Shown here in pieces: positions 7,814 through 47,758 of a DNA stretch of 64,000 bases. The notes beneath the pieces are model-generated. The model saw nothing but the letters and a program-made list of their open reading frames with translations. It made no database searches and was not told the origin of the DNA. The position numbers and the translations under genes are program-made. Source of the DNA: an uncultured Rickettsiales bacterium (GTDB taxonomy: Bacteria; Pseudomonadota; Alphaproteobacteria; Rickettsiales; SXRF01). The stretch spans positions 124,551-188,550 of the forward strand of contig CAYOOP010000001.1 of NCBI GenBank assembly GCA_964405685.1, written 5' to 3'. Each line of letters begins with the position of its first letter. The stretch's first letter is position 1.

Positions 7814-10800
7814 CGCGCATAGCCCCCAAGCGAGGATGCGTTATGCTTGCTGGCGTTTTCTTCTTCGAAACCATAGCGGCCGCGCAGCTGAATATCGAAA
7901 TCATCGGCAAGGTTATGGGTTAAGCGGCCTTCCGCAATCGGCCCCTGGTCTCCCAGGCGATCAATTGCGTAACCAAGTTCCATTTCACCATTCGTCTGCA
8001 CGTCGAAATCATGAGAGACAACGGCGGTCAGCGAATGCACTTCGCGCGAGCGCAGCGGTAGATATTTAAAGGTCGAGCCCGCAAAGCTATTGCGCTTCAC
8101 ACGGCCGCGGAGATATTCGCCGTTAAAGTTATACGAAAGCGCCACATACGGTTGCAAATCTTGCAGCGTATACAGCACATTCGCGCGCGCCGACACCGAA
8201 TCCGCAATGTTTTCCTTCACATCAACGCTATAGCGGTTATACGCACCTTCCGCACGCACTGTGAAATCCGGATCCGGTTTCCACCAGTGGGAAGCCCCCA
8301 CGCGGTCACGCACCGTATCAGCCACCACCGCTTCAGGCAGATCCCAATACGGTTTATGGTATTCGCCGTAGACCTGCGTCGTGCCAAGCAGGTTAACAGA
8401 CTGGTACGAAAGCGCACCGCCGCCTGTATCTTGGTTGCCAAAAACACTCGCGGCAACCACGCTGCTATCATCCACCATCTTCGCCATTTCGAGTTCGGCG
8501 CGGAATTTATTGCCGCTGAACTCGCGCGCCGCGCCCTGCGTGCGACGAATCACGCCGGTTTTGATATGGTTGGTTTGGAGCTTGAGTGTTGCCTCCACAT
8601 CATCGGTATATTGCACGCGGGCTTCCAGCGTTGAGAGGTTTTGCTTGGCGCTGCCCAGTTTGTACCATTCGTGGTCAAGCTTGAGATGTTCGGCATGGAA
8701 CCGCTCGATATTGCGGCGCATGCGCGCAATGTCTTCGTTCTGAGGGTCGAGACGTTGTGCATCTTTTACCAGCTTCAGCGCGCGCTTAGGATTGGCGGCA
8801 TAAAACTCAGCATTGGCCTGATACGCTTTATATTCCGGCGCGTCCGCATAATCAGCACCGAGCGCGTTCAAGCGGTTAAGCGCCTGATCCACCTCGTTCG
8901 ATTCCAACTCCGTGCGTGCATACAGCAGTTGCAACCGCAAATATCCCTGACGGTTATCCGCGACCATGGGTGCTGCGGCATTGTCAGCAACGGCAGACAC
9001 CGTTGCGCCATCAGAACGCAAGCTATAGCCAGGCGCAGCAGCAATCACGATGCTGTCATAGCTCACCGTATAATACGAAAGCCAGGCCGGTTTCGGCGAT
9101 GCACCGCCCGGCACAAAATGCGCCGGCAGCGGACGATTAAATTGCAATTTCAATTCATGGCCACCAGACATCGGCTGGATGGTAGTCAGCGCATCGGCAG
9201 GCACTTGCAACACACCGCTCACATCCATCGCAACGGGCGCAACCGCGCGAACACCCGGCTTAATGCCACCACCATACGTCGCAGCAACCGCGCGCGCATC
9301 GCTATGACGTTTTTGCTCCAGCAATGCGGCAATGTAATCCGCAAGCAGGGTTTCATCCTGCGGGTTTTGTTTCATCAGACCTTCAAATCCGCGACGCGCA
9401 GGGTCGATCATCCCAAGCGCCATTTGCGAGGCGTAGATTTTTTCTTGCGTGCCGCGATCATCAAACTGCTGGCCTTCGCCTGCTTTGAGCGCCGCTTGAT
9501 AATAGGCTTGCGCCTGTGTGTCATCTCCATCGCGGTGCGCGAGCGTTGCTTGATAATAGTTGATAGCCACCGCTTCACGCGCGCTATCCACCGCATCACG
9601 GCCCGCCGAATTCGTACGGCCCGCGGTCGCAAGTGCCGAAGAAGCCTCAACGTAGCGCGCACGCTGTAAATTAAGTTCAGCAACGCTGATATGGGTGCGG
9701 CGTGTCGCATCTGGTGCCGAAGCGGCCGCATTCAGCAGACGTTCACCTTCGGCCGGATTACGGTTAGTAAATGCCACCGCTGCCTGGTTCACCATTGCAT
9801 CGGCCGAGGTCGCCTGTACGCCACGCACTTGTTTATATCTATCCAATTGATCGGCTTGCCCAAGCTGCTGCAAGGAGCTTGCATAGCGCTGAGAAAACGC
9901 CAACACATTCAACCAATCCGGATTCAATTCCGCCGCCGCAACAATCCCCTCGGCAGGTGCAGCACTGGCGATCACCTCAATCCAACCAGTACGGTTTTCA
10001 CCTTTGGATTGTTTCGCTGCTGAAGTCAGCCATGCCATTTCCTGCTGGCCCACGCGCGCGCCGAGCACATACATGAGTTGTTCCGCATCCGAACTCTTCG
10101 GCCCATTTTTTACCGCCAGCTGCGCAAACAGTTTCACCGCATCTTGCTTACGCCCAGCATTAAGCGCGTCAAACGCCGTTGCCCGCAGGAACGCATCGCT
10201 CATCCCAGGGCGGGTTGCAAGCGCAATGCGCTTATCGAGCGCCACCGACGGCGCAGGCATGGCCGCTTTTGCCGTTGCCGAATGCCCTATACGTTTACTA
10301 GAAGCCGCACGCGCTACAGGTTTAGCAGTTTCATCATCGCTTGAAGCCTTAGCCGTTTTAGCCGCTTTCGGCGCTTTGCCCGCCAGACGTTTGGCCGGTG
10401 CTGCCGTCAGACTATTATAAAGCTGCGACCATTTTTCTTTCGTATCATCGGCTGCCGTTTGCATGCCATGCTCAGCATACTCCATTGCCATCACCTTGTC
10501 GCCCGCATTAAGCAGCGCGTACACACGGTCCATTTTCTGCGCATCCGTCAGCTTGCCGGATTCGAATTGGTCTTTCACCAGCGTGCGCAGTTCGTCGCGC
10601 GCCGCATCATCCGTTTTAGCCACATTCGCAAGCGCGACAAAATACGATTCTTCGTATTCACCATCCACCGCAGAAGCGCGCAGCTCCTTAAACAACGGCA
10701 AGGCTTTTGCATACTCACCCTGGGCCGCGTAGGCTTCGGCAGAGATTTTCTTGAGGTCCGCAGGCATGGCCGCCGCATCTGCGGGTTTGACCACATCGAT

Positions 10801-11634
10801 AAACGCAATCGCCTGTATCGGTGCACCGTTATAAAGTAACGCACTCGCAAGCACCACGTTATTGCTGCCATCCGGCTGAACCTTTGCCCAGGCGGTCGCA
10901 TACGCAAGCGCATCATCCTGCCGTTTGGCAAGCGCCAACAAACGCACATATTGCACCGCATGCGCGCTATCCATCGTTGCATTCGGAAGCGCGAGATAAT
11001 CGGTAAACGCTTGCAGCGCCGCCGCATCATCCTTCGCAGCAACCGCAACATCAGCGATCGAAAGCATCACCTCCGGTTTTTGTTTCCCCGTCACTTCATT
11101 TAATTTTTGCAACACGGAAAGCTGCTCCGCATAGAACTGCTTGCTATTTAAATAACCCGAAAGCGCCGTCAAACGCGCTTCATTCGGCTCCAATTCCGCA
11201 AGCTTCACCAGCGCCACTTTATACTCATCCTCACGCCCAAGTGCCAACAACACTTGCGCGCGCGCATCAATCGCCGCCACATCGTCAGGCTTCGTTGCAA
11301 GATAGGTATCATACGTCTCAAGCGCCTTGTCGGGATTTTTCTCGGCCATATAAGCATTGGCAAGCGTTTGCGTAGTCGCAAAACCAAGCGTACCCGCAGC
11401 TTTTTCGGATTCAAAGGCAACCGATGCCTCTGCACTACTCACAACAGCAGACACCGGAGGTGTTACGAGAGGCGCTTCAGCAACGGGTGCGGGCATGGGC
11501 GGCGGGGGCGGCAGATCATTGCTCATCTGCGTGAGGTAATAGCCTGCACCTGCGCCGACGACAGCCAAAACAGTTGCTACTAAGAGTGCTTTTTTCGCAG
11601 GAATGCGCGGAATTTTGCTCACTGTAAGTCCCAA
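7801..11634 (-). CDS. pelB: PelB-like TPR/outer-membrane beta-barrel export protein
   Basis: 1277 aa; N-terminal hydrophobic helix, Pro-rich linker, long Ala-rich TPR-like helical region, roughly 290-aa C-terminal amphipathic-strand region ending in Trp; 13-nt overlap with pelD. Confidence 0.72.
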   Translation of the reverse strand: MGLTVSKIPRIPAKKALLVATVLAVVGAGAGYYLTQMSNDLPPPPPMPAPVAEAPLVTPPVSAVVSSAEASVAFESEKAAGTLGFATTQTLANAYMAEKNPDKALETYDTYLATKPDDVAAIDARAQVLLALGREDEYKVALVKLAELEPNEARLTALSGYLNSKQFYAEQLSVLQKLNEVTGKQKPEVMLSIADVAVAAKDDAAALQAFTDYLALPNATMDSAHAVQYVRLLALAKRQDDALAYATAWAKVQPDGSNNVVLASALLYNGAPIQAIAFIDVVKPADAAAMPADLKKISAEAYAAQGEYAKALPLFKELRASAVDGEYEESYFVALANVAKTDDAARDELRTLVKDQFESGKLTDAQKMDRVYALLNAGDKVMAMEYAEHGMQTAADDTKEKWSQLYNSLTAAPAKRLAGKAPKAAKTAKASSDDETAKPVARAASSKRIGHSATAKAAMPAPSVALDKRIALATRPGMSDAFLRATAFDALNAGRKQDAVKLFAQLAVKNGPKSSDAEQLMYVLGARVGQQEMAWLTSAAKQSKGENRTGWIEVIASAAPAEGIVAAAELNPDWLNVLAFSQRYASSLQQLGQADQLDRYKQVRGVQATSADAMVNQAAVAFTNRNPAEGERLLNAAASAPDATRRTHISVAELNLQRARYVEASSALATAGRTNSAGRDAVDSAREAVAINYYQATLAHRDGDDTQAQAYYQAALKAGEGQQFDDRGTQEKIYASQMALGMIDPARRGFEGLMKQNPQDETLLADYIAALLEQKRHSDARAVAATYGGGIKPGVRAVAPVAMDVSGVLQVPADALTTIQPMSGGHELKLQFNRPLPAHFVPGGASPKPAWLSYYTVSYDSIVIAAAPGYSLRSDGATVSAVADNAAAPMVADNRQGYLRLQLLYARTELESNEVDQALNRLNALGADYADAPEYKAYQANAEFYAANPKRALKLVKDAQRLDPQNEDIARMRRNIERFHAEHLKLDHEWYKLGSAKQNLSTLEARVQYTDDVEATLKLQTNHIKTGVIRRTQGAAREFSGNKFRAELEMAKMVDDSSVVAASVFGNQDTGGGALSYQSVNLLGTTQVYGEYHKPYWDLPEAVVADTVRDRVGASHWWKPDPDFTVRAEGAYNRYSVDVKENIADSVSARANVLYTLQDLQPYVALSYNFNGEYLRGRVKRNSFAGSTFKYLPLRSREVHSLTAVVSHDFDVQTNGEMELGYAIDRLGDQGPIAEGRLTHNLADDFDIQLRGRYGFEEENASKHNASSLGGYARWTW

Positions 11635-11669
11635 TGCCCGTTTGATTTATTATCTTGATTCTTTTGACG

Positions 11670-12512
11670 TCAACCGCCACCCGAACAGGCTTGCGAATCT
11701 ACTTCTTCCGCTTCGAAAATCGACTGAAGCCTAGGGTCAGCCACCGAGGGAGAAAATCCATTCGCACGTTGGGTACAGAGGACGTGTTTGATAAGTGTTT
11801 TATCGTTTAAATCGGGATAATCAAGCGTAAAGATTCGCAAGTTGACGTTGTGTTGTTTTAGTGCATGCAGTTGCTTAACAAGCGGCAGATAAATCGAGTT
11901 ATCCACAAGCGCGTCCGCATCACGTGCGCGATCCACCAAAATACTTTCGGCAAGCACAATATCAATATCGCTTGCAACCTGCGGCAGCACTTCGAAGGCG
12001 CGGTTGACCATAAGTAGATACGGCTTCGGTAAACGCTCACGCACCCTGTGGATAAGTTCCACAGCACGTGGATGCGTACCAGGCAATTGCATCGCCAGCG
12101 CGGTGTCAAACGTGTCAAGGTAAATGCCGTCAAAACCCTCCGCTTTCGCGCGCGCAATGAGATTGTCGGTGATAAACGCCTGCCACTTGGGATTGCGCAT
12201 ATCCACCACCCAGCTTCCCCATGCATTTTCGCGTATAAAAAACCCAGGCTCACGGGCAAAGAGCGAATAGTAATTCCGATATGGCGCAATTTCAGCTACC
12301 GCAATATAGGCGAGCACTTTCGCACCACCGTTTTTAATCGGCAACACATCCGGATGCTTGTCTAAATCAAGCATCACCACATCATAGCCGCGCCAAAGCT
12401 TCGGCTCTTCCGCCTGCGCAAAATACGCCACCCAGCGCTGCTCAGTCGGCAATTGCGCCTGAGCGCAACCCACAAGCATAAATAAAAGTGCAAGGCCAAC
12501 ACAACGCATCAT
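11670..12512 (-). CDS. pelA: PelA-like endo-alpha-1,4-polygalactosaminidase (hydrolase domain only), predicted lipoprotein
   Basis: KVLAYIAVAE, W.SWVVDMRNPKW, GFDGIYLDTFD, MVNRAFE, VLAES motifs of the GH114/GH166-type barrel; lipobox LVGC; only 280 aa. Confidence 0.8.
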   Translation of the reverse strand: MMRCVGLALLFMLVGCAQAQLPTEQRWVAYFAQAEEPKLWRGYDVVMLDLDKHPDVLPIKNGGAKVLAYIAVAEIAPYRNYYSLFAREPGFFIRENAWGSWVVDMRNPKWQAFITDNLIARAKAEGFDGIYLDTFDTALAMQLPGTHPRAVELIHRVRERLPKPYLLMVNRAFEVLPQVASDIDIVLAESILVDRARDADALVDNSIYLPLVKQLHALKQHNVNLRIFTLDYPDLNDKTLIKHVLCTQRANGFSPSVADPRLQSIFEAEEVDSQACSGGG

Positions 12513-12694
12513 TGATTTTCTTCAAAAAATCCAACCGTACGGCAACTATTCGAGAAAGGACTATCAAGGTCAATCGCGAAAACAAAAAACTTCCATTTCC
12601 GTGCGCGTTGTGGCATAATGAGGGAGATGAAGATCATCTTTACTCTCACGAGTTTCATATAAAAAGCAGCGCTAAAAACAGGACGTTACGTAAG

Positions 12695-13018
12695 GTGCCC
12701 CCCGTAAGCCAGTTGCTAGGCATCATCCGTGATGTGCTCTCGGACAACAAAGCTGAACACATCGAAACAATTGATCTTAAAGGAAAATCTGATTTCGCGG
12801 ATGCCATGGTGGTTGCCAGCGGCACCTCCGCACGCCACGTCACTGCGCTTGCTGATCACCTGACAAAAACTCTCAAGAAAAACGGTTTTGAAAATGTCCC
12901 CACCGAAGGCATGGAAGCTGGCGAATGGGTGCTAGTCGATGCCGGCGACATCATCGTCCACCTCTTCAAGCCTGATGCGCGCGAGCATTATAAGCTTGAG
13001 AAAATGTGGAGTGTGTGA
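12695..13018 (+). CDS. rsfS: Ribosome silencing factor RsfS (Iojap)
   Basis: DNKAEHIETIDL, VVASGTSARHV, EWVLVDAGDIIVHLF..REHYKLEKMW; start moved to GTG 12695 (track ORF starts at 12488 inside pelA). Confidence 0.92.
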   Translation: MPPVSQLLGIIRDVLSDNKAEHIETIDLKGKSDFADAMVVASGTSARHVTALADHLTKTLKKNGFENVPTEGMEAGEWVLVDAGDIIVHLFKPDAREHYKLEKMWSV

Positions 13019-13025
13019 GCCTGCA

Positions 13026-13541
13026 TCACCCTCCGCGACTCCTCGGGGGAAGGTTTTCGGTGATCATTTGCGTTACGACATGCGCTATTTCAGAAGCTTG
13101 TTTATTATCAATAAATTCAAGTTGTTCTTTTGAACGAAAGTATGAGACTTTTGTTTCTGGTTCGTCCAATACTTGGATACCCAATTGCTGCGCAGCGATG
13201 CGCGTGGGCTGAGAAATTGAATTTATCGTTCTATTATTCGTCATTACAATGTTGGGTATACACCCCTTTACTTGCCGAAGCCACTCACTCATCTGCGGGC
13301 AATTTTGAGACTGTTTATCATCCTCAACCCCCAACAGAGAGTCCGAAACATTCATTATTACAGCCGTAGCATAATCGTTTCTCTGTTCTGTCATTTTCTG
13401 CATTAGTATGTTTAGTTCTTGTATATTTGTGCAAGGAACAATTTCCGCACTATATCCCTGTTTTTCAAGGGTGGATTTAACATGGTCCACACGGCAACCA
13501 CCTTGGATAATCAGAATTTTTTTGTTATTCGTTTCGGACAT
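13026..13541 (-). CDS. Hypothetical protein, possible atypical receiver-like (REC) fold
   Basis: AT-rich 171-aa ORF; KKILII / AVIMNV / IPNIVMT spaced like REC beta1/beta3/beta4. Confidence 0.5.
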   Translation of the reverse strand: MSETNNKKILIIQGGCRVDHVKSTLEKQGYSAEIVPCTNIQELNILMQKMTEQRNDYATAVIMNVSDSLLGVEDDKQSQNCPQMSEWLRQVKGCIPNIVMTNNRTINSISQPTRIAAQQLGIQVLDEPETKVSYFRSKEQLEFIDNKQASEIAHVVTQMITENLPPRSRGG

Positions 13542-13710
13542 ATGATGCTCTCTGAATTAGTGGGGTAGAGTGTAATCAATGTGTTGACTAATATCAACTT
13601 TCGAGGAGTGCTGTAAATAGAAATTCGCTAGGCCGCAAACGAAAACAGCATTCCTCGAGAACCGCAGCGAAGCGCAGAAGAATGCTATTTGCAGCAAGAC
13701 TTAGTAGAAT

Positions 13711-14373
13711 TTACGACGCGTCAGCGTTGCCGGTTTTTTGAATCGCCGCAGTTTTGCGTGCGAGCTCGTCGGAAAGATAATCCAAGCCCTTGCTGCTAAT
13801 CACCGAGGTGAACTCGGAGCGCTGCGTGGTGATCATGCTGACACCTTCGATGTTCAGATCGAAGATTTTAAACCCACCGCCAGATTTGCGCACATGATAG
13901 TCCAGGTTCACCGGTTTTTCCGTGCCGACTTTCATGGAGACGGTATATTCATTGTCGCTATCTTCGCGTGCACCAGCAATGGTGAAACCACCACCGGTGT
14001 ACTCATTAAACCGCGCAGTGTAGTGCGAAATCAAGAAGCGGCGATACTCTTTTAAATAGCGCGATTTTTGCGCGTCGGTCGCTTGTTTCCAAAAACGCCC
14101 CGTCACAAACTTGCCCACCCAATCAATGTCCACATGTGAATTGAACAAGCCTTCAAGCTTGGCATTTTTCTGCGCTTGCGATTTTTTGGATTGAACGGTC
14201 GAGAGCACCTGATCGGCGAGCGATTGAATATACGCTTTCGCCTGATCTTCCCCTCCAGCGTGCGCGGGTGCAATTGCTACAAAACCAAGCACCATTGCTA
14301 AAGCAAGCGTGCAGCCGAAAGAAAAAAGACGTTTCACGTGAGTTCCCACTATCCCATTGTTAAGCGCCGACAC
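13711..14373 (-). CDS. mlaC: Phospholipid-binding protein MlaC/Ttg2D
   Basis: Signal peptide; GRFWKQATDAQKSRY; FKIFDLNIEGVSMITTQRSEF. Confidence 0.9.
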   Translation of the reverse strand: MSALNNGIVGTHVKRLFSFGCTLALAMVLGFVAIAPAHAGGEDQAKAYIQSLADQVLSTVQSKKSQAQKNAKLEGLFNSHVDIDWVGKFVTGRFWKQATDAQKSRYLKEYRRFLISHYTARFNEYTGGGFTIAGAREDSDNEYTVSMKVGTEKPVNLDYHVRKSGGGFKIFDLNIEGVSMITTQRSEFTSVISSKGLDYLSDELARKTAAIQKTGNADAS

Positions 14374-14397
14374 TTGAGAGTGTCAGTCGCACCTATT

Positions 14398-15180
14398 TTA
14401 CTGCTTTGCCTTCTTAGGCGCAACGGGTTTTGCAGCAGGAGTTTTTGGACCAAACGCCTCTCTCACTTCTTTCGCACGGCGTTGGAGATACGCACTACGG
14501 AAGGTCGCATACGGATCCACCGAGTTGTTATAGAGATCATCCAACATCTGCATATGGTTCGAACGGAAGTCGATCGCGTTCGCGCCCATTTGAGCATAGC
14601 TATATGCATCTTCTTCAGCCCAAGTGATCGGGTTGATGAGCAGGTCCACACCTTTACCAGTCGTATCACGCAGCGTGCCAGGTCCAATGATCGGCAACAC
14701 CAGATACGCGCCCGAAGGCATGCCATAACGCGCCATCGTCTGACCGAAATCCGCATTGCGCGCGGTCAAACCAGCGCTCGCAGCCACATCGTTAATACCG
14801 CCAAGACCAACGGTCGTGTTGATCACAAAGCGCCAGAAGGTCGCAAAGCTGTTTTTCACGTCACCTTGCAACACGGAGTTTGCAAGATTCACCGGAGCAT
14901 CCAAGTTGTCTAAGAAATGGGTCACGGCAGTACGGCCGACATCCGGAACAATCGTTTTATACACCCAAGAGATCGGGCGAAGAATCACTTGATCGAGCGT
15001 TTTATTACCTTGGAAGAACACGCGGTTCATCGGCTCGAGCGGATCTTCATCGACCGCAGCCTCGTCCGTATACTTTGCATGAGGGGTGCCCGGCGTGTTG
15101 GTATAGTCGGCACAAGCAGAAAGCGAGAACGCAGCTGCAAGGGCGAGGAAGAGAGGGCGAACCGAACGTGTATCCAACAT
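14398..15180 (-). CDS. mlaA: VacJ/MlaA family lipoprotein
   Basis: Lipobox LSAC; DPLEPMNR, RFVINTTVGLGG, DFGQTMARYG..GAYLVLPIIGP; start set at ATG 15180. Confidence 0.92.
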   Translation of the reverse strand: MLDTRSVRPLFLALAAAFSLSACADYTNTPGTPHAKYTDEAAVDEDPLEPMNRVFFQGNKTLDQVILRPISWVYKTIVPDVGRTAVTHFLDNLDAPVNLANSVLQGDVKNSFATFWRFVINTTVGLGGINDVAASAGLTARNADFGQTMARYGMPSGAYLVLPIIGPGTLRDTTGKGVDLLINPITWAEEDAYSYAQMGANAIDFRSNHMQMLDDLYNNSVDPYATFRSAYLQRRAKEVREAFGPKTPAAKPVAPKKAKQ

Positions 15181-18225: not shown

Positions 18226-18313
18226 TCGCTGTTTAAAATAAACTGCCGTACGGTTTCAGGGTACTTTACAGCGCAGAGATACGTCCTCGGTATCCTGTCA
18301 TCCAGTCTAAACC

Positions 18314-18378
18314 TAAGTTAGCACTTCAAAATGTTGGCTGTGGAAGAGCCTGTTTAGTGAATTCGCTCTCAGTATGCC
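18314..18378 (-). repeat. att-like repeat copy A (core plus conserved arm)
   Basis: taagttagcacttcaaaatgttggctg followed by tggaagagcctgtttagtgaattcgctctcagtatgcc; core identical to the sequence at the tRNA-Gln 3' end. Confidence 0.9.
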
Positions 18379-18744
18379 ACGATAAATTAGCGGAAAATAG
18401 GGATTTCCAGGGGTGCACATTCCGTGCATGAATTAGGGTAGGAAAATCTGGTGATAACGGGGCCCCAGTGTTCGATTCACCTCAACAGCACCATTCCCTC
18501 CTATTAATGTATTGATATATAATGGATTCACATTTGCCAGGATATCACCTTTGATTGTGGATGTAATGCTTGGCCCTTAAACCCACCGGCAACCACAAAT
18601 TGCGCTGGCAGATATCACGAAAATCTGTTAATTAGTTTCCCCAATTGCTGAGCATACAGCAAACGAAACATACGGGGAGTAGCATGATGAAATCACTGCG
18701 TATCTACGATACCAGAAACACTTTACACAATGCAAGAGTCGGCA

Positions 18745-31023: not shown

Positions 31024-31127
31024 CCCGGAGCACCGCTCGCTCTTGAACTCCACCACACACCATTTTTTGCGGATATAGATTAGCGTGCCGCTCTTCGAAA
31101 GGGGCTAGTCTAGATAAGCACAACGAA

Positions 31128-31187
31128 TTAGCACTTCAAAATGTTGACTGGGGAAGAGCCTGTTTAGTGAATTCGCTCTCAGCATGC
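31128..31187 (-). repeat. att-like repeat copy B
   Basis: ttagcacttcaaaatgttgactg-ggaagagcctgtttagtgaattcgctctcagcatgcc; near-identical to copy A. Confidence 0.9.
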
Positions 31188-31252
31188 CAAGAAAAATGGG
31201 CAGAAATACATTTCTGCGACATTCGGGGCAGTGTGAGCCTCAAGTGGGCTAA

Positions 31253-31804
31253 TTAAGAGCCACTTTTTAGTTTTTTTGCGATACATTTTTTCATGCATTG
31301 CTTGTGTGCTTCTTCCTTTTTCTTTTTTGCTTCTTCAGCTTGTTGCTGTTTCTGTTCCTCGGTTGGTTTGTCTTTGTCAGATGCAGAAAATGGATTGGGA
31401 GGTGTTAACGGCTGTTTGCCACCACTATCTGACTTAGGTAGGTTCGAGGAACCGAAACAGACAAAGGTAGCACAATATGATTGTGCGCTTTCGTAGTTTT
31501 CCTTATCTTTTTTTTGCTGGCCGAAATTTTTTGCCAGCGGGTCCTTCGGTTTGTCTGATCCGTGATTTTTCAGCGCATCTTTATTCTCTTTGGCAAAATC
31601 GGTGATCTCAGCGTTACGTTTTTGCTCTTTTGCGTCTTGCAAGTCTTTCTTAAAGCCTGCTTCGCCCGTGTTGGGATTGATAGATTTGTTGGCTACGGCA
31701 GGGCGCTGGCTATCTGCATCAGCCGTACGAGGTGCTCCGAGTTGGGCGTGGGCAGCGGTAGCAAGTGCTACAGATAGAATGATTGATGAAACAGGACGTA
31801 TCAT
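31253..31804 (-). CDS. Secreted Lys/Gln-rich protein with paired-Cys motifs (paralog 4)
   Basis: Signal peptide ending AHA-QLG; NPNTGEAGFKKDLQDAK; CATFVC...CMKKC. Confidence 0.8.
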   Translation of the reverse strand: MIRPVSSIILSVALATAAHAQLGAPRTADADSQRPAVANKSINPNTGEAGFKKDLQDAKEQKRNAEITDFAKENKDALKNHGSDKPKDPLAKNFGQQKKDKENYESAQSYCATFVCFGSSNLPKSDSGGKQPLTPPNPFSASDKDKPTEEQKQQQAEEAKKKKEEAHKQCMKKCIAKKLKSGS

Positions 31805-31819
31805 AAAGTTGCTCCTGTC

Positions 31820-32419
31820 TTATGGTTTATCAGTGCTCGAAGATTTATCTGAATCTTGCTGCAATTCTTCCGAGGTTTTTTCAATGCCAGCACCCACGCC
31901 TTGTGCGCCGCCCTTTGCAATGCATTCATCCACGCACTGCTTGATTTCTTCAGGGGTTTTCGTTTTCTGGCTGCCGACCGAAGGGTGATAGGTTCCTCCT
32001 CCGACTGAACCACCAAACGGTGTCTTCACAGGATCTTGGTGAATGCCACCAGCGGGGGGCATTCCAGAAGGATTGCAAAAATTGGTGCAAAACTTCTTAG
32101 TGCTCGCCTGTTTCTTTGCTGCTAATTGTCCGCCATCATCAACACCTGATTTCGGTTTTTGGTCGTCCGATCCAGGCAAGGCTTTTTTGCCCAGTTGCTT
32201 GGCCTCTCCAGAACCTTCAGCAATGTCAGCCGCGCGTTTTTGATCTTTTGCATCTTGCAAATTTTTTTTGAAACCTGCTTCACCTGTGTTTGGATTCATG
32301 GATTTGCCGTTTACCGCGCGGGCGGTGTCCTCTGCGCTTCGGCCGATTTGTGCAGTGGCAGGAAGCGCCAGCAGCGATGCCGCGACGGTAGCAAGTAAAA
32401 TAATATGCAAACGTGACAT
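31820..32419 (-). CDS. Secreted protein with twin CX3C motifs (paralog 3)
   Basis: Signal peptide ending ATA-QIG; NPNTGEAGFKKNLQDAK; CTNFC...CVDEC. Confidence 0.8.
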   Translation of the reverse strand: MSRLHIILLATVAASLLALPATAQIGRSAEDTARAVNGKSMNPNTGEAGFKKNLQDAKDQKRAADIAEGSGEAKQLGKKALPGSDDQKPKSGVDDGGQLAAKKQASTKKFCTNFCNPSGMPPAGGIHQDPVKTPFGGSVGGGTYHPSVGSQKTKTPEEIKQCVDECIAKGGAQGVGAGIEKTSEELQQDSDKSSSTDKP

Positions 32420-32438
32420 GAGGTGGTTCCTTTCCTTG

Positions 32439-33059
32439 TTATTTAGGACATTTGGTGAGGCAGGCTTCGTATTGCTGTTTTTTCATTTCCGCATCTGGGT
32501 CAGATTTGGAGGGTTCAAGCGGCGATTTTAGGCTGTTATCTATTGCCGATTTCAAAGGATTCTTCGGATAGTATTTATTCTTGCACTTGGCCTCGCACTT
32601 GGCTTTGGATAGCTCCAAACCGCCTTCGCTTATACCCGCTTGCGTGTTTTGCTCTGCCGCAAGGTTACCAGACTTCGCTGCTTCTGAAGGAGGTAGTTTC
32701 GTTGTGGATTTGCCAGTTCTTTTTGCGTCCACAGGCCTTACGTCATCCAATTTGAGGCTGCCATCTTTCACCTCAATCGTAGAGCCGCCGTCTTGTTTAA
32801 ACTTGCTGCCACCTTCTACCTTGAAGCCGCTTCCTTCCTGCTTGAACTCACTGCCATTATGGAACGTAGGGCCTTTATCAGTTTTGAGTTCGCTACCGCC
32901 AACCACTTTTGGGCCTTCATCGGTTTTGAACTCGCTTGATTCAAAGGTAACCTTTGGCGAGTTATTGTTACGATTCTGCGAAGCGCCAATTTGCGCGTCG
33001 GCACTGAAAGTCATAAGTGCAAGAGCAGCACTAGTAAGAAGTGTGGAGTGAAGGGTCAT
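32439..33059 (-). CDS. Secreted protein with GSEFK-like repeats and twin CX3C motifs (paralog 2)
   Basis: Signal peptide ending ADA-QIG; repeated (S/G)SE(F/L)K(T/Q)(D/E); CEAKC...CLTKC. Confidence 0.8.
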   Translation of the reverse strand: MTLHSTLLTSAALALMTFSADAQIGASQNRNNNSPKVTFESSEFKTDEGPKVVGGSELKTDKGPTFHNGSEFKQEGSGFKVEGGSKFKQDGGSTIEVKDGSLKLDDVRPVDAKRTGKSTTKLPPSEAAKSGNLAAEQNTQAGISEGGLELSKAKCEAKCKNKYYPKNPLKSAIDNSLKSPLEPSKSDPDAEMKKQQYEACLTKCPK

Positions 33060-33075
33060 GGTATTCTCCTAAACA

Positions 33076-33612
33076 TTATTTCTCGCAGCCTTGTTTGCAG
33101 GCTTCGTATTTTTCTTTGACCTTTTTGTACTGCTCATAAATTTCTGGCTTGCAGATGGCATTGGGGCCTGAATTACACATGCCACTAAATTTAGCCACGC
33201 TTACTTTGAAAGTCGTAGTGCAAGAAGACAAGCAGGATTTCTTTTTCTTCTCTTTTTCCTCTGCCGCTTTTTTGGCTGCAGCGGCATCTTTTTTATCCTG
33301 CGTATATTTAGCGCCTTGCTTTTGCAGATTGTCATCCTGCTTTGGGGCCTCTAACCCCGGCGCAGATTTCTCTGCCTGCTCTTTTGCTTTATTCGCTGCA
33401 TCTATGGTACGCGCATCCTGCACTTCTTTTTTGAGTTGGTCATTGCCCTGCGGGCCTTTGGAGGCGTTCGGTTTGACAATTTCAATCTGCGCCGGGGATA
33501 TACCCATTTTGCTGACACCATCATTTGTATGCTGTATGCCGATCTGAGCATGAGCACCACTTGCCAGAAAAGCGGCCGCAAAAAACACTAAACAGTAGAA
33601 TGATTTTAACAT
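33076..33612 (-). CDS. Secreted protein with twin CX3C motifs (paralog 1)
   Basis: Signal peptide ending AHA-QIG; CLSSC...C..C...CKQGC. Confidence 0.8.
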   Translation of the reverse strand: MLKSFYCLVFFAAAFLASGAHAQIGIQHTNDGVSKMGISPAQIEIVKPNASKGPQGNDQLKKEVQDARTIDAANKAKEQAEKSAPGLEAPKQDDNLQKQGAKYTQDKKDAAAAKKAAEEKEKKKKSCLSSCTTTFKVSVAKFSGMCNSGPNAICKPEIYEQYKKVKEKYEACKQGCEK

Positions 33613-33644
33613 AAAGGTTCCTTTGCATATCGAAGCAAGTACGA

Positions 33645-33911
33645 TTACTGCCCCTGGGTTTGGAAAATAATTGCTTTATCTGTTTTCTTAGAAGTTTGGC
33701 TTCCACCAGAAATTTCTTCTTCACCCTTATTCTGGAAAATAATGGCCTTATCCGTTTTTTTATTTGCTGGATTTTTTGCCTTTTCAGCATGCACAGATTT
33801 TGGCGCGGGAATCTTTGCCGATTCAGAATCGATTGTTTTTGCAAGCGATACTTGCGCGGAAAAAGCCAGCGCAGATATCACAGTACATAGAATTAGCTGA
33901 TAATGCTTCAT
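33645..33911 (-). CDS. Small secreted protein with duplicated KKTDKAIIFQ motif
   Basis: RBS gggagg, signal peptide, exact 10-aa duplication. Confidence 0.72.
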   Translation of the reverse strand: MKHYQLILCTVISALAFSAQVSLAKTIDSESAKIPAPKSVHAEKAKNPANKKTDKAIIFQNKGEEEISGGSQTSKKTDKAIIFQTQGQ

Positions 33912-34008
33912 AAAACCTCCCGTTTTATGATTTACTCTCCGTGACCCTACTCCCGTGCAGATAGCGACTCAAATTAAATTTTCATTACAGTTTTGTAATA
34001 TAGGACAA

Positions 34009-34857
34009 TTACTTAAGTCCACCACCTTTTTTTGCAGAAATCTTGGGTTCAAAGGGCTTTTCGTACGCACCATCGCCGGTTTCGGTAACAAAATAATCAA
34101 TGGTGGGTAGTGTCTCATCGGTCGCAGGGGCAAGCATGCGCAGGCGCACGCGGTAGCGACCAAGAGTACCAGTTGGTAACTCTGGGCTTACCAATGTAAG
34201 CTGGTTATTTGCGCCGACAGGACGGGTGACATTTTTCAGTGGACGATAGAGCGGCTGATCCAACCCGCCAAAATTATCCGCTACTTCCCATACGGCACGC
34301 AGCACACCGGAGCCTGATACATTGACTTCTGCGCGCGCGCGAAGCGCTTCTTTTTGTGCTATGGCGCGGTAATCCGTACCGTCCTCAAAAGTCAGCGTTT
34401 GGCTGGCAAGGCCAGGCTGCCCAGCGGTTCCGCCGGTAATGGTAATGGTGACTTCATCACTATTGGCAAACACCCCGTCATCGGCAAAGAAGCGTTCATA
34501 CTCAAGCACTGCCCCTTGACGCTGTGCCGCTAACACTACATGGCGTGGTACGGTCACATTTTCTACAATATTGACTACTCCAACCAATCCATTGGGAATA
34601 GAGCGTGTAATGGTACGGGTAGTAGCGGTGGTAGGCGCGCCAGCAATCTTGAACGTACCTGCTTGTCCAATCATCGTACCCGTACCCGCGAAAGGGGTAT
34701 GAGTCACCTGCCATGTGACTACAAATGTCGAATTACCAGAAACGCTCGCCTCACGCGTGGTAGGATTGACTGATACACCAGTTACTGTTGCAAAAGCGGC
34801 ATAAGGCAGGAAGAGAGCTATGAGCAAAGGAAGCGTTTTCATAATATTACCATCCAA
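34009..34857 (-). CDS. Exported beta-rich (Ig-like) hypothetical protein
   Basis: Signal peptide (LPLLIALFLPYAAFA); Thr/Val-rich alternating strands; overlaps stop of upstream gene; true start may be the second Met. Confidence 0.7.
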   Translation of the reverse strand: MDGNIMKTLPLLIALFLPYAAFATVTGVSVNPTTREASVSGNSTFVVTWQVTHTPFAGTGTMIGQAGTFKIAGAPTTATTRTITRSIPNGLVGVVNIVENVTVPRHVVLAAQRQGAVLEYERFFADDGVFANSDEVTITITGGTAGQPGLASQTLTFEDGTDYRAIAQKEALRARAEVNVSGSGVLRAVWEVADNFGGLDQPLYRPLKNVTRPVGANNQLTLVSPELPTGTLGRYRVRLRMLAPATDETLPTIDYFVTETGDGAYEKPFEPKISAKKGGGLK

Positions 34858-36880
34858 ATGGTGCGTTAATCTTTATGTTAGCATAGATTTTATATTGGCT
34901 GCCGATATCACTGCGCACATTCGCATGATCTGCTACATTTTGATATTGTGCGTTGAGTCCAATACCATAACCAGGTGCGTTGCGCTCCGCTTCAGCAAAC
35001 CTCCAAAACAGTTCGCCTGAAACGTTATATTGTTTATCATCATGGCCGGAATCATTAAGCTGGATAGAGCCATAGGTGTGGCTGGTGAGCACGTCTTCCA
35101 GAATAATGTAATTGACATCAATCCCAGCAAAATAATTGCTCTGTTCTTTGGCGGAAACATAGCGCAGGCGTTCATGTTGCAGCGAGGGTGAAACGGTGAA
35201 ACTCTCGGTAGGAAAATAGGAAAACGAAAGCTCGGTGAGATGCGAATCTTGGTTATCTGAGAGTAGAATCTTATCACGATACTCGGTGTAAGTATGCGTA
35301 AGCGACAAACTCGATTGCTCAAAATTTGTGTTCCAGCCAATGTTACCGCCGGAATTGTGATAACGTAGGTTATCACCCAAAAACCCCGCCGGCGTTTTAT
35401 CGCGGAACGTATTATGCAAATATGCACCCGTCGTGAAAGTACTGTTATTAAACCAGTCCAAGCCCTCCACTTCCAACCCTAGATACGAGGGCGTAAAGCT
35501 TGCCTGAACCGACCCGCCTTGTGTTTTATCCGTAGGCACATCAACCAGCTGATTCACGTTGTTTTTCATCACATATCCATCCGCCACTAGCGTAAACGTG
35601 TCATGCACAAAATCTGACGTGAGGCTTACGCGTTTTTGATCGCTGGGGAGGTTGTTGTTAGTAATGGCGTGGAAATAAGTGCCTACGCGCTTAGCGTCCA
35701 ACGTCAGATTCCAATTCACCTCATTATAGGTAGCAGGGTTTAAATCACCCCACAAAGCAACACTTGCCAGTCCGCGTGCTGCCTCATCATTCAGCGGACC
35801 AATCATCGTACCATCACCGTCATAGTCATAATGCGTGTGCGCAAATTCGCCCTTAAGACGCGTGCGATCTTTGAGACCACGCCATTCAGTGCCGAGATTC
35901 CAACCCTTGCCAGATTTACTGATATCGTCAATCAGCGCATCGCCCCGACCACGTTCGCGTCCATCACCGCTTACATAGCCACCTTCTACCCAAAAATGTT
36001 CGTCGAATCCGAGCGGATAAAACTGCATCTGTGTGCCGCTAACACGTTCATTTGGTTCGCGTACACCGCTGATATTCACACTGCCGATAGCACGCGCCGG
36101 GTCCTGCGAAAAACCGATCACACGCACATGTTCCAGCGCCTCCAGTTGCAACGAGGCACCACGGCGATAAAATTTGTCCATCAATAGGTTAGAAACACCG
36201 ACATCATGGTTGCCAAACCGCAGCATGGCATTGCCATGTTCTGAAAATCCACGGCCGGTGAGCAAATATTCACCGTATTGCCATGGGCGATCATCATAGT
36301 TGTTGGCGGGTATCGAGTCGTAATTTCCGTTGAATTTTGCACGAAAATCCCAATGTGTGCCACCCGCCACAGCATTCGTATCAAGGAATGCATTCGCTGT
36401 GTGCGTATCGGGGTGGTTGCGGCCACGTAAATTCTTGTCAGCAAGTAGGGTGTTATATTGCCCGGTAGCCTCACCCCACACTTGTTGGTCGTCACCGGTT
36501 TGCCCACCCACGCGAACGACCCAACGCTCCAATTCTGTGTATTTCTCGTTACCCACATGCTCATACAGTTTCACCACATGGTCGCCAACGCTTAAGCGGT
36601 TACTTGGCTGGTATGTCACTCGGCGGCCGGAAAGTTGCACGGATGGTGTAACATCTTCTCCATCAAACTGCAGAAATAGATTGCCTTTACGCTCGTCGGA
36701 AATTGCGTCAGTCAGGTCAAATACGATGGCATCGGTAGGGCTGATGGCGCTTTGGCGGGCAGCAGGTTGCACAAGAGCAATCGCATCGGCGGTGTGCGCA
36801 GCAAACGGCAAACCGAGGCTAATCCCGCCAGCAATAGCGCTGCACAAAAGCAACTCCGATATTTTGAAGCCAACCCTCAT
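34847..36880 (-). CDS. Putative outer-membrane beta-barrel protein with N-terminal Ig-like domain
   Basis: 677 aa; signal peptide; amphipathic strands with Gly/aromatic periodicity; terminal aromatic residue (APFGW). Confidence 0.65.
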   Translation of the reverse strand: MRVGFKISELLLCSAIAGGISLGLPFAAHTADAIALVQPAARQSAISPTDAIVFDLTDAISDERKGNLFLQFDGEDVTPSVQLSGRRVTYQPSNRLSVGDHVVKLYEHVGNEKYTELERWVVRVGGQTGDDQQVWGEATGQYNTLLADKNLRGRNHPDTHTANAFLDTNAVAGGTHWDFRAKFNGNYDSIPANNYDDRPWQYGEYLLTGRGFSEHGNAMLRFGNHDVGVSNLLMDKFYRRGASLQLEALEHVRVIGFSQDPARAIGSVNISGVREPNERVSGTQMQFYPLGFDEHFWVEGGYVSGDGRERGRGDALIDDISKSGKGWNLGTEWRGLKDRTRLKGEFAHTHYDYDGDGTMIGPLNDEAARGLASVALWGDLNPATYNEVNWNLTLDAKRVGTYFHAITNNNLPSDQKRVSLTSDFVHDTFTLVADGYVMKNNVNQLVDVPTDKTQGGSVQASFTPSYLGLEVEGLDWFNNSTFTTGAYLHNTFRDKTPAGFLGDNLRYHNSGGNIGWNTNFEQSSLSLTHTYTEYRDKILLSDNQDSHLTELSFSYFPTESFTVSPSLQHERLRYVSAKEQSNYFAGIDVNYIILEDVLTSHTYGSIQLNDSGHDDKQYNVSGELFWRFAEAERNAPGYGIGLNAQYQNVADHANVRSDIGSQYKIYANIKINAPFGW

Positions 36881-37044
36881 GGGGAGAAATATTTACCAAA
36901 TCGGTATTTTTTGTCTATGATGAAATGGTTCACTATGGGCACACGAGATACCAAACATCCCTATAGAATGCTGGCGGAGTATGATTGCTAATGTGATGGT
37001 GGAATGGTGGTAAGCCCGATACAGGCGCGGAGTTGCGATTCTCA

Positions 37045-37120
37045 CAGGCCAGACTTAAGTTAGCACTTCAAAATGTTGGCTGTGGAATGGCGAATTTAGT
37101 GAAAATGCTCTCAGCATGCC
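37045..37120 (-). repeat. att-like repeat copy C
   Basis: 37045-37082 is identical over 38 bp to 47652-47689; followed by a diverged arm (tttagtgaaaatgctctcagcatgcc) shared with copies A and B. Confidence 0.92.
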
Positions 37121-37239
37121 AGAGAAAATAAGCAGAAAAAAACCTCTAATGGATCGTGTCTGATTTATTGATAGTGCGCACACAGGTAGCGGGTTGTTTA
37201 ACATATTGCCAACTATAGCACGCATTCTATAGTGCACGG

Positions 37240-47472: not shown

Positions 47473-47651
47473 GCAGCATCAAATGCTAACTTTTGTTCTA
47501 AGCCTGTCCGGAATACAGAGACAATCTCGTTGATATCCTACCATCCAGGTGAGGTTTGGAGTGAAAAACCGCTATTTTGGCAGAAATGGGCTTTTGGTAT
47601 GTGGCGGTGAATACGCAAATGGTGCCGGAAACAGCCACAATCACGGAGTCT

Positions 47652-47689
47652 CAGGCCAGACTTAAGTTAGCACTTCAAAATGTTGGCTG
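47652..47689 (-). repeat. att-like repeat copy D overlapping tRNA-Gln 3' end
   Basis: caggccagacttaagttagcacttcaaaatgttggctg; the last 6 nt are the tRNA 3' terminal CAGCCA. Confidence 0.92.
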
Positions 47690-47758
47690 GGGCGCCAGGA
47701 TTCGAACCTGGGAATGCCGGTACCAAAAACCGGTGCCTTACCGCTTGGCGACGCCCCA
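47684..47758 (-). tRNA. tRNA-Gln (TTG)
   Basis: TGGGGCG/CGCCCCA acceptor stem, anticodon arm CCGGT-TTTTGGT-ACCGG, T-loop GTTCGAATC, encoded CCA; 75 nt. Confidence 0.97.

Follow-up and report, generated by a model that had tools for sequence, protein, structure and literature searches.

A predicted 26-strand outer-membrane barrel and its co-encoded partner as a candidate conduit for disordered proteins in an uncultured Rickettsiales bacterium

What might a run of seven genes do whose products all appear to be exported, and of which the first encodes a large putative outer-membrane barrel? The question is raised by a locus of an uncultured Rickettsiales bacterium (GTDB lineage SXRF01), found in a 64,000-nucleotide (nt) stretch of DNA, hereafter the window (GenBank assembly GCA_964405685.1, contig CAYOOP010000001.1, positions 124,551 to 188,550 of the forward strand). 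Seven head-to-tail open reading frames (ORFs) on the minus strand of the window (31253-36880) encode products of 677, 282 (277 from ATG), 88, 178, 206, 199, and 183 amino acids (aa). Structural models and homologous loci indicate that the first two genes, encoding the barrel and an exported partner, are a genuine uncharacterized two-gene outer-membrane module accompanied by lineage-specific candidate substrates. We tentatively propose, with a confidence somewhat short of even, that the barrel and its partner act as a conduit exporting or anchoring disordered proteins at the outer membrane; the pair would then constitute a two-component outer-membrane machine of an uncharacterized family. The genes and domains on which the analysis turns are as follows (Ig, immunoglobulin; AF2, AlphaFold2; RBS, ribosome-binding site).

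34847..36880, minus strand: gene for the 677-aa predicted outer-membrane protein, with signal peptide, N-terminal Ig-like domain, and 26-strand beta-barrel (ORF and AF2 model)
36509..36781, minus strand: predicted N-terminal Ig-like (CopC/Big_5-like) domain, residues ~34-124 (AF2 secondary structure, conserved columns)
34853..36484, minus strand: predicted 26-strand beta-barrel, residues 133-676 (AF2 strand list, conservation, VIA alignment)
34009..34842 from ATG, minus strand: exported partner gene, 277 aa (282 aa from a TTG at 34857) (ORF, AF2, homologous partners)
33645..33911, minus strand: gene for the 88-aa exported protein, with RBS GGGAGG and two KKTDKAIIFQ repeats
33076..33612, minus strand: Lys-rich exported protein of 178 aa, candidate cargo, mostly low-complexity, mature N-terminus QIG, Cys pairs in the C-terminal part
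32439..33059, minus strand: paralogue of 206 aa, candidate cargo, mature N-terminus QIG, twin CX3C near the C-terminus
31820..32419, minus strand: paralogue of 199 aa, candidate cargo, mature N-terminus QIG, twin CX3C
31253..31804, minus strand: paralogue of 183 aa, candidate cargo, mature N-terminus QLG, two C-terminal Cys pairs (CX4C and CX3C)
31200..31217, minus strand: terminator-like hairpin directly 3' of the last gene

The AF2 model of the 677-aa protein (pLDDT 90.7, pTM 0.82, 73-sequence alignment) comprises a signal helix (residues 6-22), the Ig-like sandwich, a linker of ~8 residues, and 26 strands joined by short loops and short periplasmic turns, with no plug domain inserted, which agrees with the first-pass annotation of this DNA, where a barrel with an N-terminal Ig-like domain had been proposed. 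Because the Ig-like domain is tied to the first strand by only ~8 residues, it is expected at the periplasmic mouth. The protein ends in ...APFGW, and a C-terminal aromatic residue is typical of substrates of the beta-barrel assembly machinery (BAM). The Ig-like domain carries the family motifs LELDxxDVT and PLxxGxHxLRL...W, while the conserved motifs of the barrel part (GHH...FxRRGxS, DxDG, SxxN...D, and NV...P) fall in loops predicted to be external. A full HMMER scan of 1.84 billion representative sequences yielded 305 clusters (E<=1e-3), 219 of them reaching E<=1e-10; family members are almost all 650-700 aa long, and every named one is a "hypothetical protein". The family is rare and patchy, occurring in 4 of 61 sampled genomes of the order and 7 of 401 of the phylum.

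Profile and structure searches place this protein in no known family. Scans of all seven proteins against Pfam and NCBIfam gave nothing at E<0.1 except two noise-level matches, the barrel sequence on its own retrieved nothing meaningful from the PDB, and a few members of the barrel family weakly matched generic barrel families. Neither the barrel, which the first-pass annotation had left unassigned, nor its partner belongs to a known transporter or secretion family. Foldseek against the PDB retrieved only generic large barrels (template-modelling score, TM, ~0.3). The top rank in the VIA exhaustive fold search went to MtrB (6r2q_B, Z 16.9), with 440 residues aligned across 133-675 at an identity of 6%; the ushers FimD (Z 15.1) and PapC (Z 14.8) came next. 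Neighbors among predicted structures are unnamed clusters from Pseudomonadota and Thermodesulfobacteriota and, at a greater distance, barrels that carry a fused CarboxypepD_reg, SdrD_B, or SLH domain. The family profile of the Ig-like domain matches CopC (6nfr) weakly but end to end (E 0.039). The copper ligands of CopC are not conserved in the family, which carries Trp where CopC has its N-terminal His ligand, and we therefore rejected a copper site and read the match as fold similarity only. The barrel is not the LptD of its host either, a separate canonical LptD being encoded on contig 9 of the genome.

The partner, in which the first-pass annotation had recognized a beta-sandwich protein, is modelled by AF2 (13 sequences, pLDDT 77.6) as two such domains (residues 20-136 and 144-253) followed by a disordered Lys/Gly tail; structure prediction and Foldseek, the checks that the annotation had suggested for both proteins, thus gave a confident barrel, a beta-sandwich partner, and generic fold matches only. 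The partner has neither Cys nor a lipobox and bears an AFA-type signal peptidase I site; it is not a lipoprotein, and without Cys it has no heme sites. Its fold matches are generic (Ig, CARDB, Fn3, CBM, and RbmA-type domains), and it has no match to a Pfam, NCBIfam, or PDB sequence family. The match to FimC is poor (Z 8.4, root-mean-square deviation 14.4), and the partner is therefore not specifically a PapD-like chaperone. A third, Fn3/Ig-like domain occurs in more distant partner homologs and is absent from that of the window.

The two genes are tightly coupled with either start codon of the partner. The ATG at 34842, used by the database copy (277 aa) and by the closest homolog, lies 4 nt past the barrel stop codon, whereas the overlap of the two genes described by the first-pass annotation (11 nt) exists only with the upstream TTG start. 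The database copy of the barrel protein (666 aa) starts 11 codons downstream of the 677-aa ORF start, and no obvious RBS was seen for the barrel gene. Gaps between successive genes measure 4, 97, 32, 16, 19, and 15 nt, clear Shine-Dalgarno sites precede all five small genes (GGGAGG, AAGGAA, AGGAGA, GGAAAGGAA, and AGGAGC), slightly more than the "most" first credited to these secreted proteins, and the arrangement looks like a single operon. Sec-type signal sequences, consisting of a basic residue, a hydrophobic stretch, and an AxA-type site, are apparent on all seven products, as the annotation had it for this co-oriented set; signal peptides and cleavage sites were assigned by eye, without a dedicated predictor.

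Which of these genes belong together was assessed from 18 loci, including the window, and from a maximum-likelihood tree of 17 of their barrels (that of locus L045 was left out). The partner gene lies directly 3' of the barrel gene in all 18, with a 4-nt or overlapping junction; identities range across loci from 24 to 71% for the barrel and from ~22 to 76% for the partner, and in L023 the partner is duplicated. The tree resolves two clades, each with 100/100 support. Clade A comprises 11 tree rows including the window, to which L045 was added by the same synteny (12 loci); clade B comprises six rows, with readable flanking DNA in five (L011, L023, L025, L028, and L029). The nearest named relatives are metagenome-assembled genomes (MAGs) labelled uncultured Micavibrio or Alphaproteobacteria.

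The conserved core is the barrel and its partner only, and the seven-gene set is lineage-specific. Among the loci examined, the Lys-rich proteins and the 88-aa protein recur only in the closest relative, L001 (71% barrel identity), where the homolog of the 88-aa protein (62% identity over 47 aa) occupies the same position and keeps the KKTDKAIIFQ motif; the sister clade, moreover, holds the same pair in a different module, described below. The first-pass view of the seven genes as one unit is thus not supported as far as conservation goes: the neighborhood comparison that it had called for recovers the pair in every locus and the full set in none of the more distant ones.

Exported low-complexity proteins nevertheless recur beside the pair, being encoded by adjacent genes in 10 of the 12 clade-A loci. 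Gly-rich repeat proteins adjoin it in L002, L003, L021, L032, L041, L043, and L045, many of them having in common a C-terminal ...GTV(V/I)NPGE...NPG...PG(R/A)P motif, and the adjacent protein in L010 is Gly/Ser-rich. The coordinates of the Gly-rich genes are as follows.

L002:3960-5249, L021:3419-~5050, L032:2199-3872, and L043:5185-~6770, minus strand: Gly-rich repeat protein genes
L041 and L045: Gly-rich repeat protein genes that reach the contig ends and are incomplete

In Micavibrio-like MAGs, exported repeat proteins with 30-50% glycine (e.g., GGLGDKGG units) are encoded divergently upstream of the barrel. The small proteins of the window are basic (isoelectric point, pI, 8.3-9.5), Lys-rich, and of low complexity, with Cys pairs near the C-terminus. 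A mature N-terminus of the form Q-(I/L)-(G/N/S) recurs in otherwise dissimilar neighbors (four in the window, two in L001, and further ones in L010, L002, L003, L043, and L027), and in the host genome the four paralogues encoded here are the only proteins in which this motif follows a credible signal peptide. The layout of pore, adaptor, and variable substrates that the first-pass annotation had perceived thus fits 10 of 12 clade-A loci; its putative secretory role is read from genomic context.

Clade B differs from this picture. Genes for an extracytoplasmic function (ECF) sigma factor, a zf-HC2 anti-sigma factor, and an S8 subtilase (~570 aa) stand beside the pair in all five readable loci and are homologous between them (sigma factors up to 57% identical), whereas none of the three lies near the pair in the 11 tree rows of clade A. 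Upstream of the barrel, three clade-B loci have in common the gene of an exported protein (~450-480 aa) whose tail is basic and rich in Pro and Lys; one of these proteins matches DUF4402 weakly (E 0.0024).

L011:10200-11603, minus strand: clade-B exported protein gene
L028:696-2039, minus strand: clade-B exported protein gene
L029:6773-8221, plus strand: clade-B exported protein gene

Taken together, these data suggest the following mechanism. All seven products, judging from the signal peptides visible in their sequences, would cross the inner membrane by Sec. The large protein would be inserted as a 26-strand barrel with the Ig-like domain at its periplasmic mouth, as implied by the AF2 model, the aromatic C-terminus, and the short linker, and translational coupling would let the partner be made in step with it. 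Given the invariant pairing, the partner may dock on or inside the wide plugless lumen as a gate or adaptor, like MtrA in MtrB or LptE in LptD. From the gene neighborhood, the disordered neighbors would be threaded unfolded and without ATP, like the subunits of curli and Fap. The putative cargo would be the four basic Lys-rich twin-CX3C paralogues and the 88-aa protein here, and the Gly-rich repeat proteins in relatives; the Q-(I/L)-(G/N/S) N-terminus may aid recognition, after which the cargo would coat the cell or be released. We favor this conduit because of the predicted folds of barrel and partner, with 26 plugless strands and MtrB as the nearest fold, because the pair is kept throughout while low-complexity exported neighbors accompany it in most of clade A, and because the N-terminal motif recurs in dissimilar neighbors, an exported protein is conserved beside the pair in clade B as well, and the layout is operon-like.

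Several observations weigh on the other side. The candidate cargo varies by lineage and is not obvious in L031; the N-terminal motif is missing from some Gly-rich homologs (L032, L041, and L021), and the cleavage sites that define it were judged by eye; and the sigma factor and protease context of clade B is more suggestive of signalling or of the handling of a protease than of export in bulk. The contrast between an acidic barrel (net charge -27) and the basic small proteins, which we had counted for the cargo reading, is weak evidence because most outer-membrane proteins are acidic. A bolder form of the proposal, in which the pair is the core of an unrecognized secretion or display pathway of the outer membrane dedicated to disordered proteins, reads its cargo by the Q-(I/L)-(G/N/S) N-terminus, is spread by mobile cassettes, and, in this small and probably Micavibrio-like genome (Micavibrio being an epibiotic predator), brings the cationic proteins with twin CX3C to the cell surface or past it, strikes us as possible but doubtful. 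Literature searches found no description of such a barrel-partner system.

The same pairing and fold can be read without any cargo. In a sheath-and-insert envelope complex like MtrAB or LptDE, the barrel and partner would serve for partner display, as a channel, or in envelope tethering, and the small proteins would be co-transferred passengers with a role of their own, for example as periplasmic or surface-active cationic proteins. The invariant 1:1 pairing (1:2 in L023) with its coupling, the plugless 26-strand barrel nearest to MtrB, the wide variation of the non-partner neighbors, and the occurrence of barrels with a fused SLH or CarboxypepD_reg domain among the predicted structural neighbors all argue for it. 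We nevertheless hold it to be unlikely, since it does not account for exported low-complexity neighbors in most clade-A loci, for the conserved exported protein of clade B, or for an N-terminal motif common to unrelated neighbors, and since the partner is devoid of Cys, heme motifs, and a lipobox.

The clade-B loci suggest a second alternative, namely that the pair is the outer-membrane arm of a cell-surface signalling system of ECF sigma factor, anti-sigma factor, and subtilase, and that the window carries a reduced remnant from which regulator and protease have been lost. Its support lies in the five loci in which homologous genes for all three stand by the pair; the main text of the ECF classification paper (PMC7826278) mentions no subtilase-linked group. 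This explanation appears improbable to us, because the whole clade of the window is without these genes near the pair, a single clade-B S8 query found no homolog in the complete host genome, plug, TonB box, and signalling domain are all missing from the barrel, and the pair is intact and conserved rather than decayed. A divergent chaperone-usher system for fiber assembly, to which the first-pass annotation had drawn a parallel, is very improbable and largely refuted: FimD and PapC are the second-best folds, the partner has the size of a chaperone and a pair of Ig-like domains, and the genes downstream encode small exported proteins, but there is no Usher or PapD match in Pfam, the barrel has 26 strands instead of 24 and neither plug nor N- or C-terminal usher domains, FimC matches the partner only generically, and the small proteins, of low complexity with Cys hairpins, look unlike Ig-fold pilins and are absent from most loci of the family.

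Returning to the conduit proposal, the operon of the window may also have traveled as a unit. Four att-like direct repeats lie on either side of it.

31110..31215, plus strand: att-like direct repeat, low-coordinate bound of the cassette
37042..37147, plus strand: att-like direct repeat, high-coordinate bound, 95% identical over 44 nt to the copy at 47649-47692
18303-18397 and 47649-47692: further att-like repeat copies

Since the first two repeats flank the genes, the seven genes fill one repeat-bounded segment, exactly as first annotated. The 19-mer core of the repeat, TTAGCACTTCAAAATGTTG, has exactly four copies in the 1.89-Mb genome, all on one strand (window positions 18318, 31128, 37060, and 47667); a dispersed element of the repetitive extragenic palindromic (REP) kind was rejected, as these four copies all lie within the array. 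The copy at 47649-47692 overlaps the 3' end of a tRNA-Gln gene (47684-47758), and the three distal copies have a further ~60 nt in common. Together the repeats cut the region of 18.4-47.7 kb into three tandem segments, an RTX toxin locus, the seven-gene cassette, and a cco/Fnr/OmpW block, which look as though they accreted at one tRNA-linked site with the seven genes as the middle segment. Within the proposed mechanism, the cassette would be horizontally mobile and part of this tandem array by tRNA-Gln. Nine flanking ORFs that were scanned gave no match to an integrase family. In L001, a homologous five-gene operon (10001-14634) lies 134 nt 3' of a tRNA-Thr gene (9793-9867), with no flanking att-like repeat copy and no tRNA-Thr-derived repeat; the cassette has therefore landed beside two different tRNA genes. 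An integrase gene is located near the homologous locus in G009.

Two further observations concern the surroundings of clade-A pairs. A GDSL/SGNH hydrolase of ~210 aa, which starts at its GDS motif and has no obvious signal peptide, is encoded 3' of the partner in four loci.

L002:8535-9185, L032:7342-7995, L041:4149-4784, and L045:3642-4268: GDSL/SGNH hydrolase genes

The barrel of L031 (1121-6564) stands beside a cluster resembling those of the general stress response, with an ECF sigma factor (faint PhyR_sigma2 match), an OmpA-like protein, DUF1328, DUF3309, and LTXXQ.

How the module relates to known systems can be judged from both its likenesses and its differences. By its features (a barrel protein of ~650-700 aa, the motifs LELDxxDVT, GxHxLRL, RRG, and DxDG, and a tandem beta-sandwich gene directly 3'), the locus of the window belongs to the family of barrel and tandem-Ig pairs defined here. 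In the clade-B ECF/subtilase modules, barrel (24-26% identity) and partner are homologous to those of the window and agree with them in order and coupling, and an exported protein is encoded upstream; the clade of the window is without their sigma factor, anti-sigma factor, and protease and has low-complexity secreted proteins instead, and the partner of the window does not have the third Fn3/Ig domain. The association in the sister clade suggests that the same machine may be under envelope-signal control in other bacteria. TonB-dependent transporters (plug, TonB box, 22 strands) are remote, as no Plug or TonB_dep_Rec match was obtained, fold similarity is low (TM ~0.3), and here 26 strands follow an Ig-like domain. 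Chaperone-usher systems resemble the locus in their large barrel (Z ~15), a partner of two Ig domains, and small exported proteins downstream; ushers, however, combine 24 strands with a plug and N-terminal and C-terminal domains, none of which the present barrel has, no family matches were found, and the small proteins here are not conserved with the pair.

Curli (CsgG, CsgE, and CsgF, with CsgA and CsgB) and Fap (FapF) offer a functional analogy only: a pore and a periplasmic accessory are encoded next to unfolded exported substrates that carry N-terminal targeting segments, and no energy source is encoded. CsgG is a 36-strand nonameric lipoprotein and FapF a 12-strand trimer, whereas the barrel here is modelled as a monomer of 26 strands without a family match, and the amyloid repeats of curli and Fap substrates are not found in the substrates here. 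The recurrent link to exported disordered proteins opens to test the question of how unfolded non-amyloid proteins cross the outer membrane of Gram-negative bacteria without ATP.

Closer likenesses are found in LptD-LptE and MtrB-MtrA. In LptDE, a barrel of 26 strands is preceded by a periplasmic beta domain, and a small partner fills the lumen; the present barrel has no LptD/OstA match, and its partner, unlike LptE, is not a lipoprotein. MtrB of the Shewanella MtrCAB complex (PDB 6R2Q) is a 26-strand sheath around MtrA, and it resembles the present barrel in giving the best fold match, in its wide lumen without a plug of its own, and in its obligatory co-encoded exported partner. The identity of 6%, the lack of an MtrB_PioB match in Pfam and NCBIfam, and the additional N-terminal Ig-like domain set the barrel apart from MtrB, as the missing Cys residues, and hence multiheme CXXCH motifs, set the partner apart from MtrA; gene order also differs, and no cytochromes are encoded nearby. 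LptD and MtrB are, to our knowledge, the only understood barrels of 26 strands, and both are sheaths around a partner. The family described here, with its obligatory Ig-like partner, ~300 clusters, and occurrence in several phyla, would represent a third, unrelated 26-strand type and add a new type of outer-membrane machine; as modelled, the module is a variant of the partner-filled or substrate-threading barrel theme.

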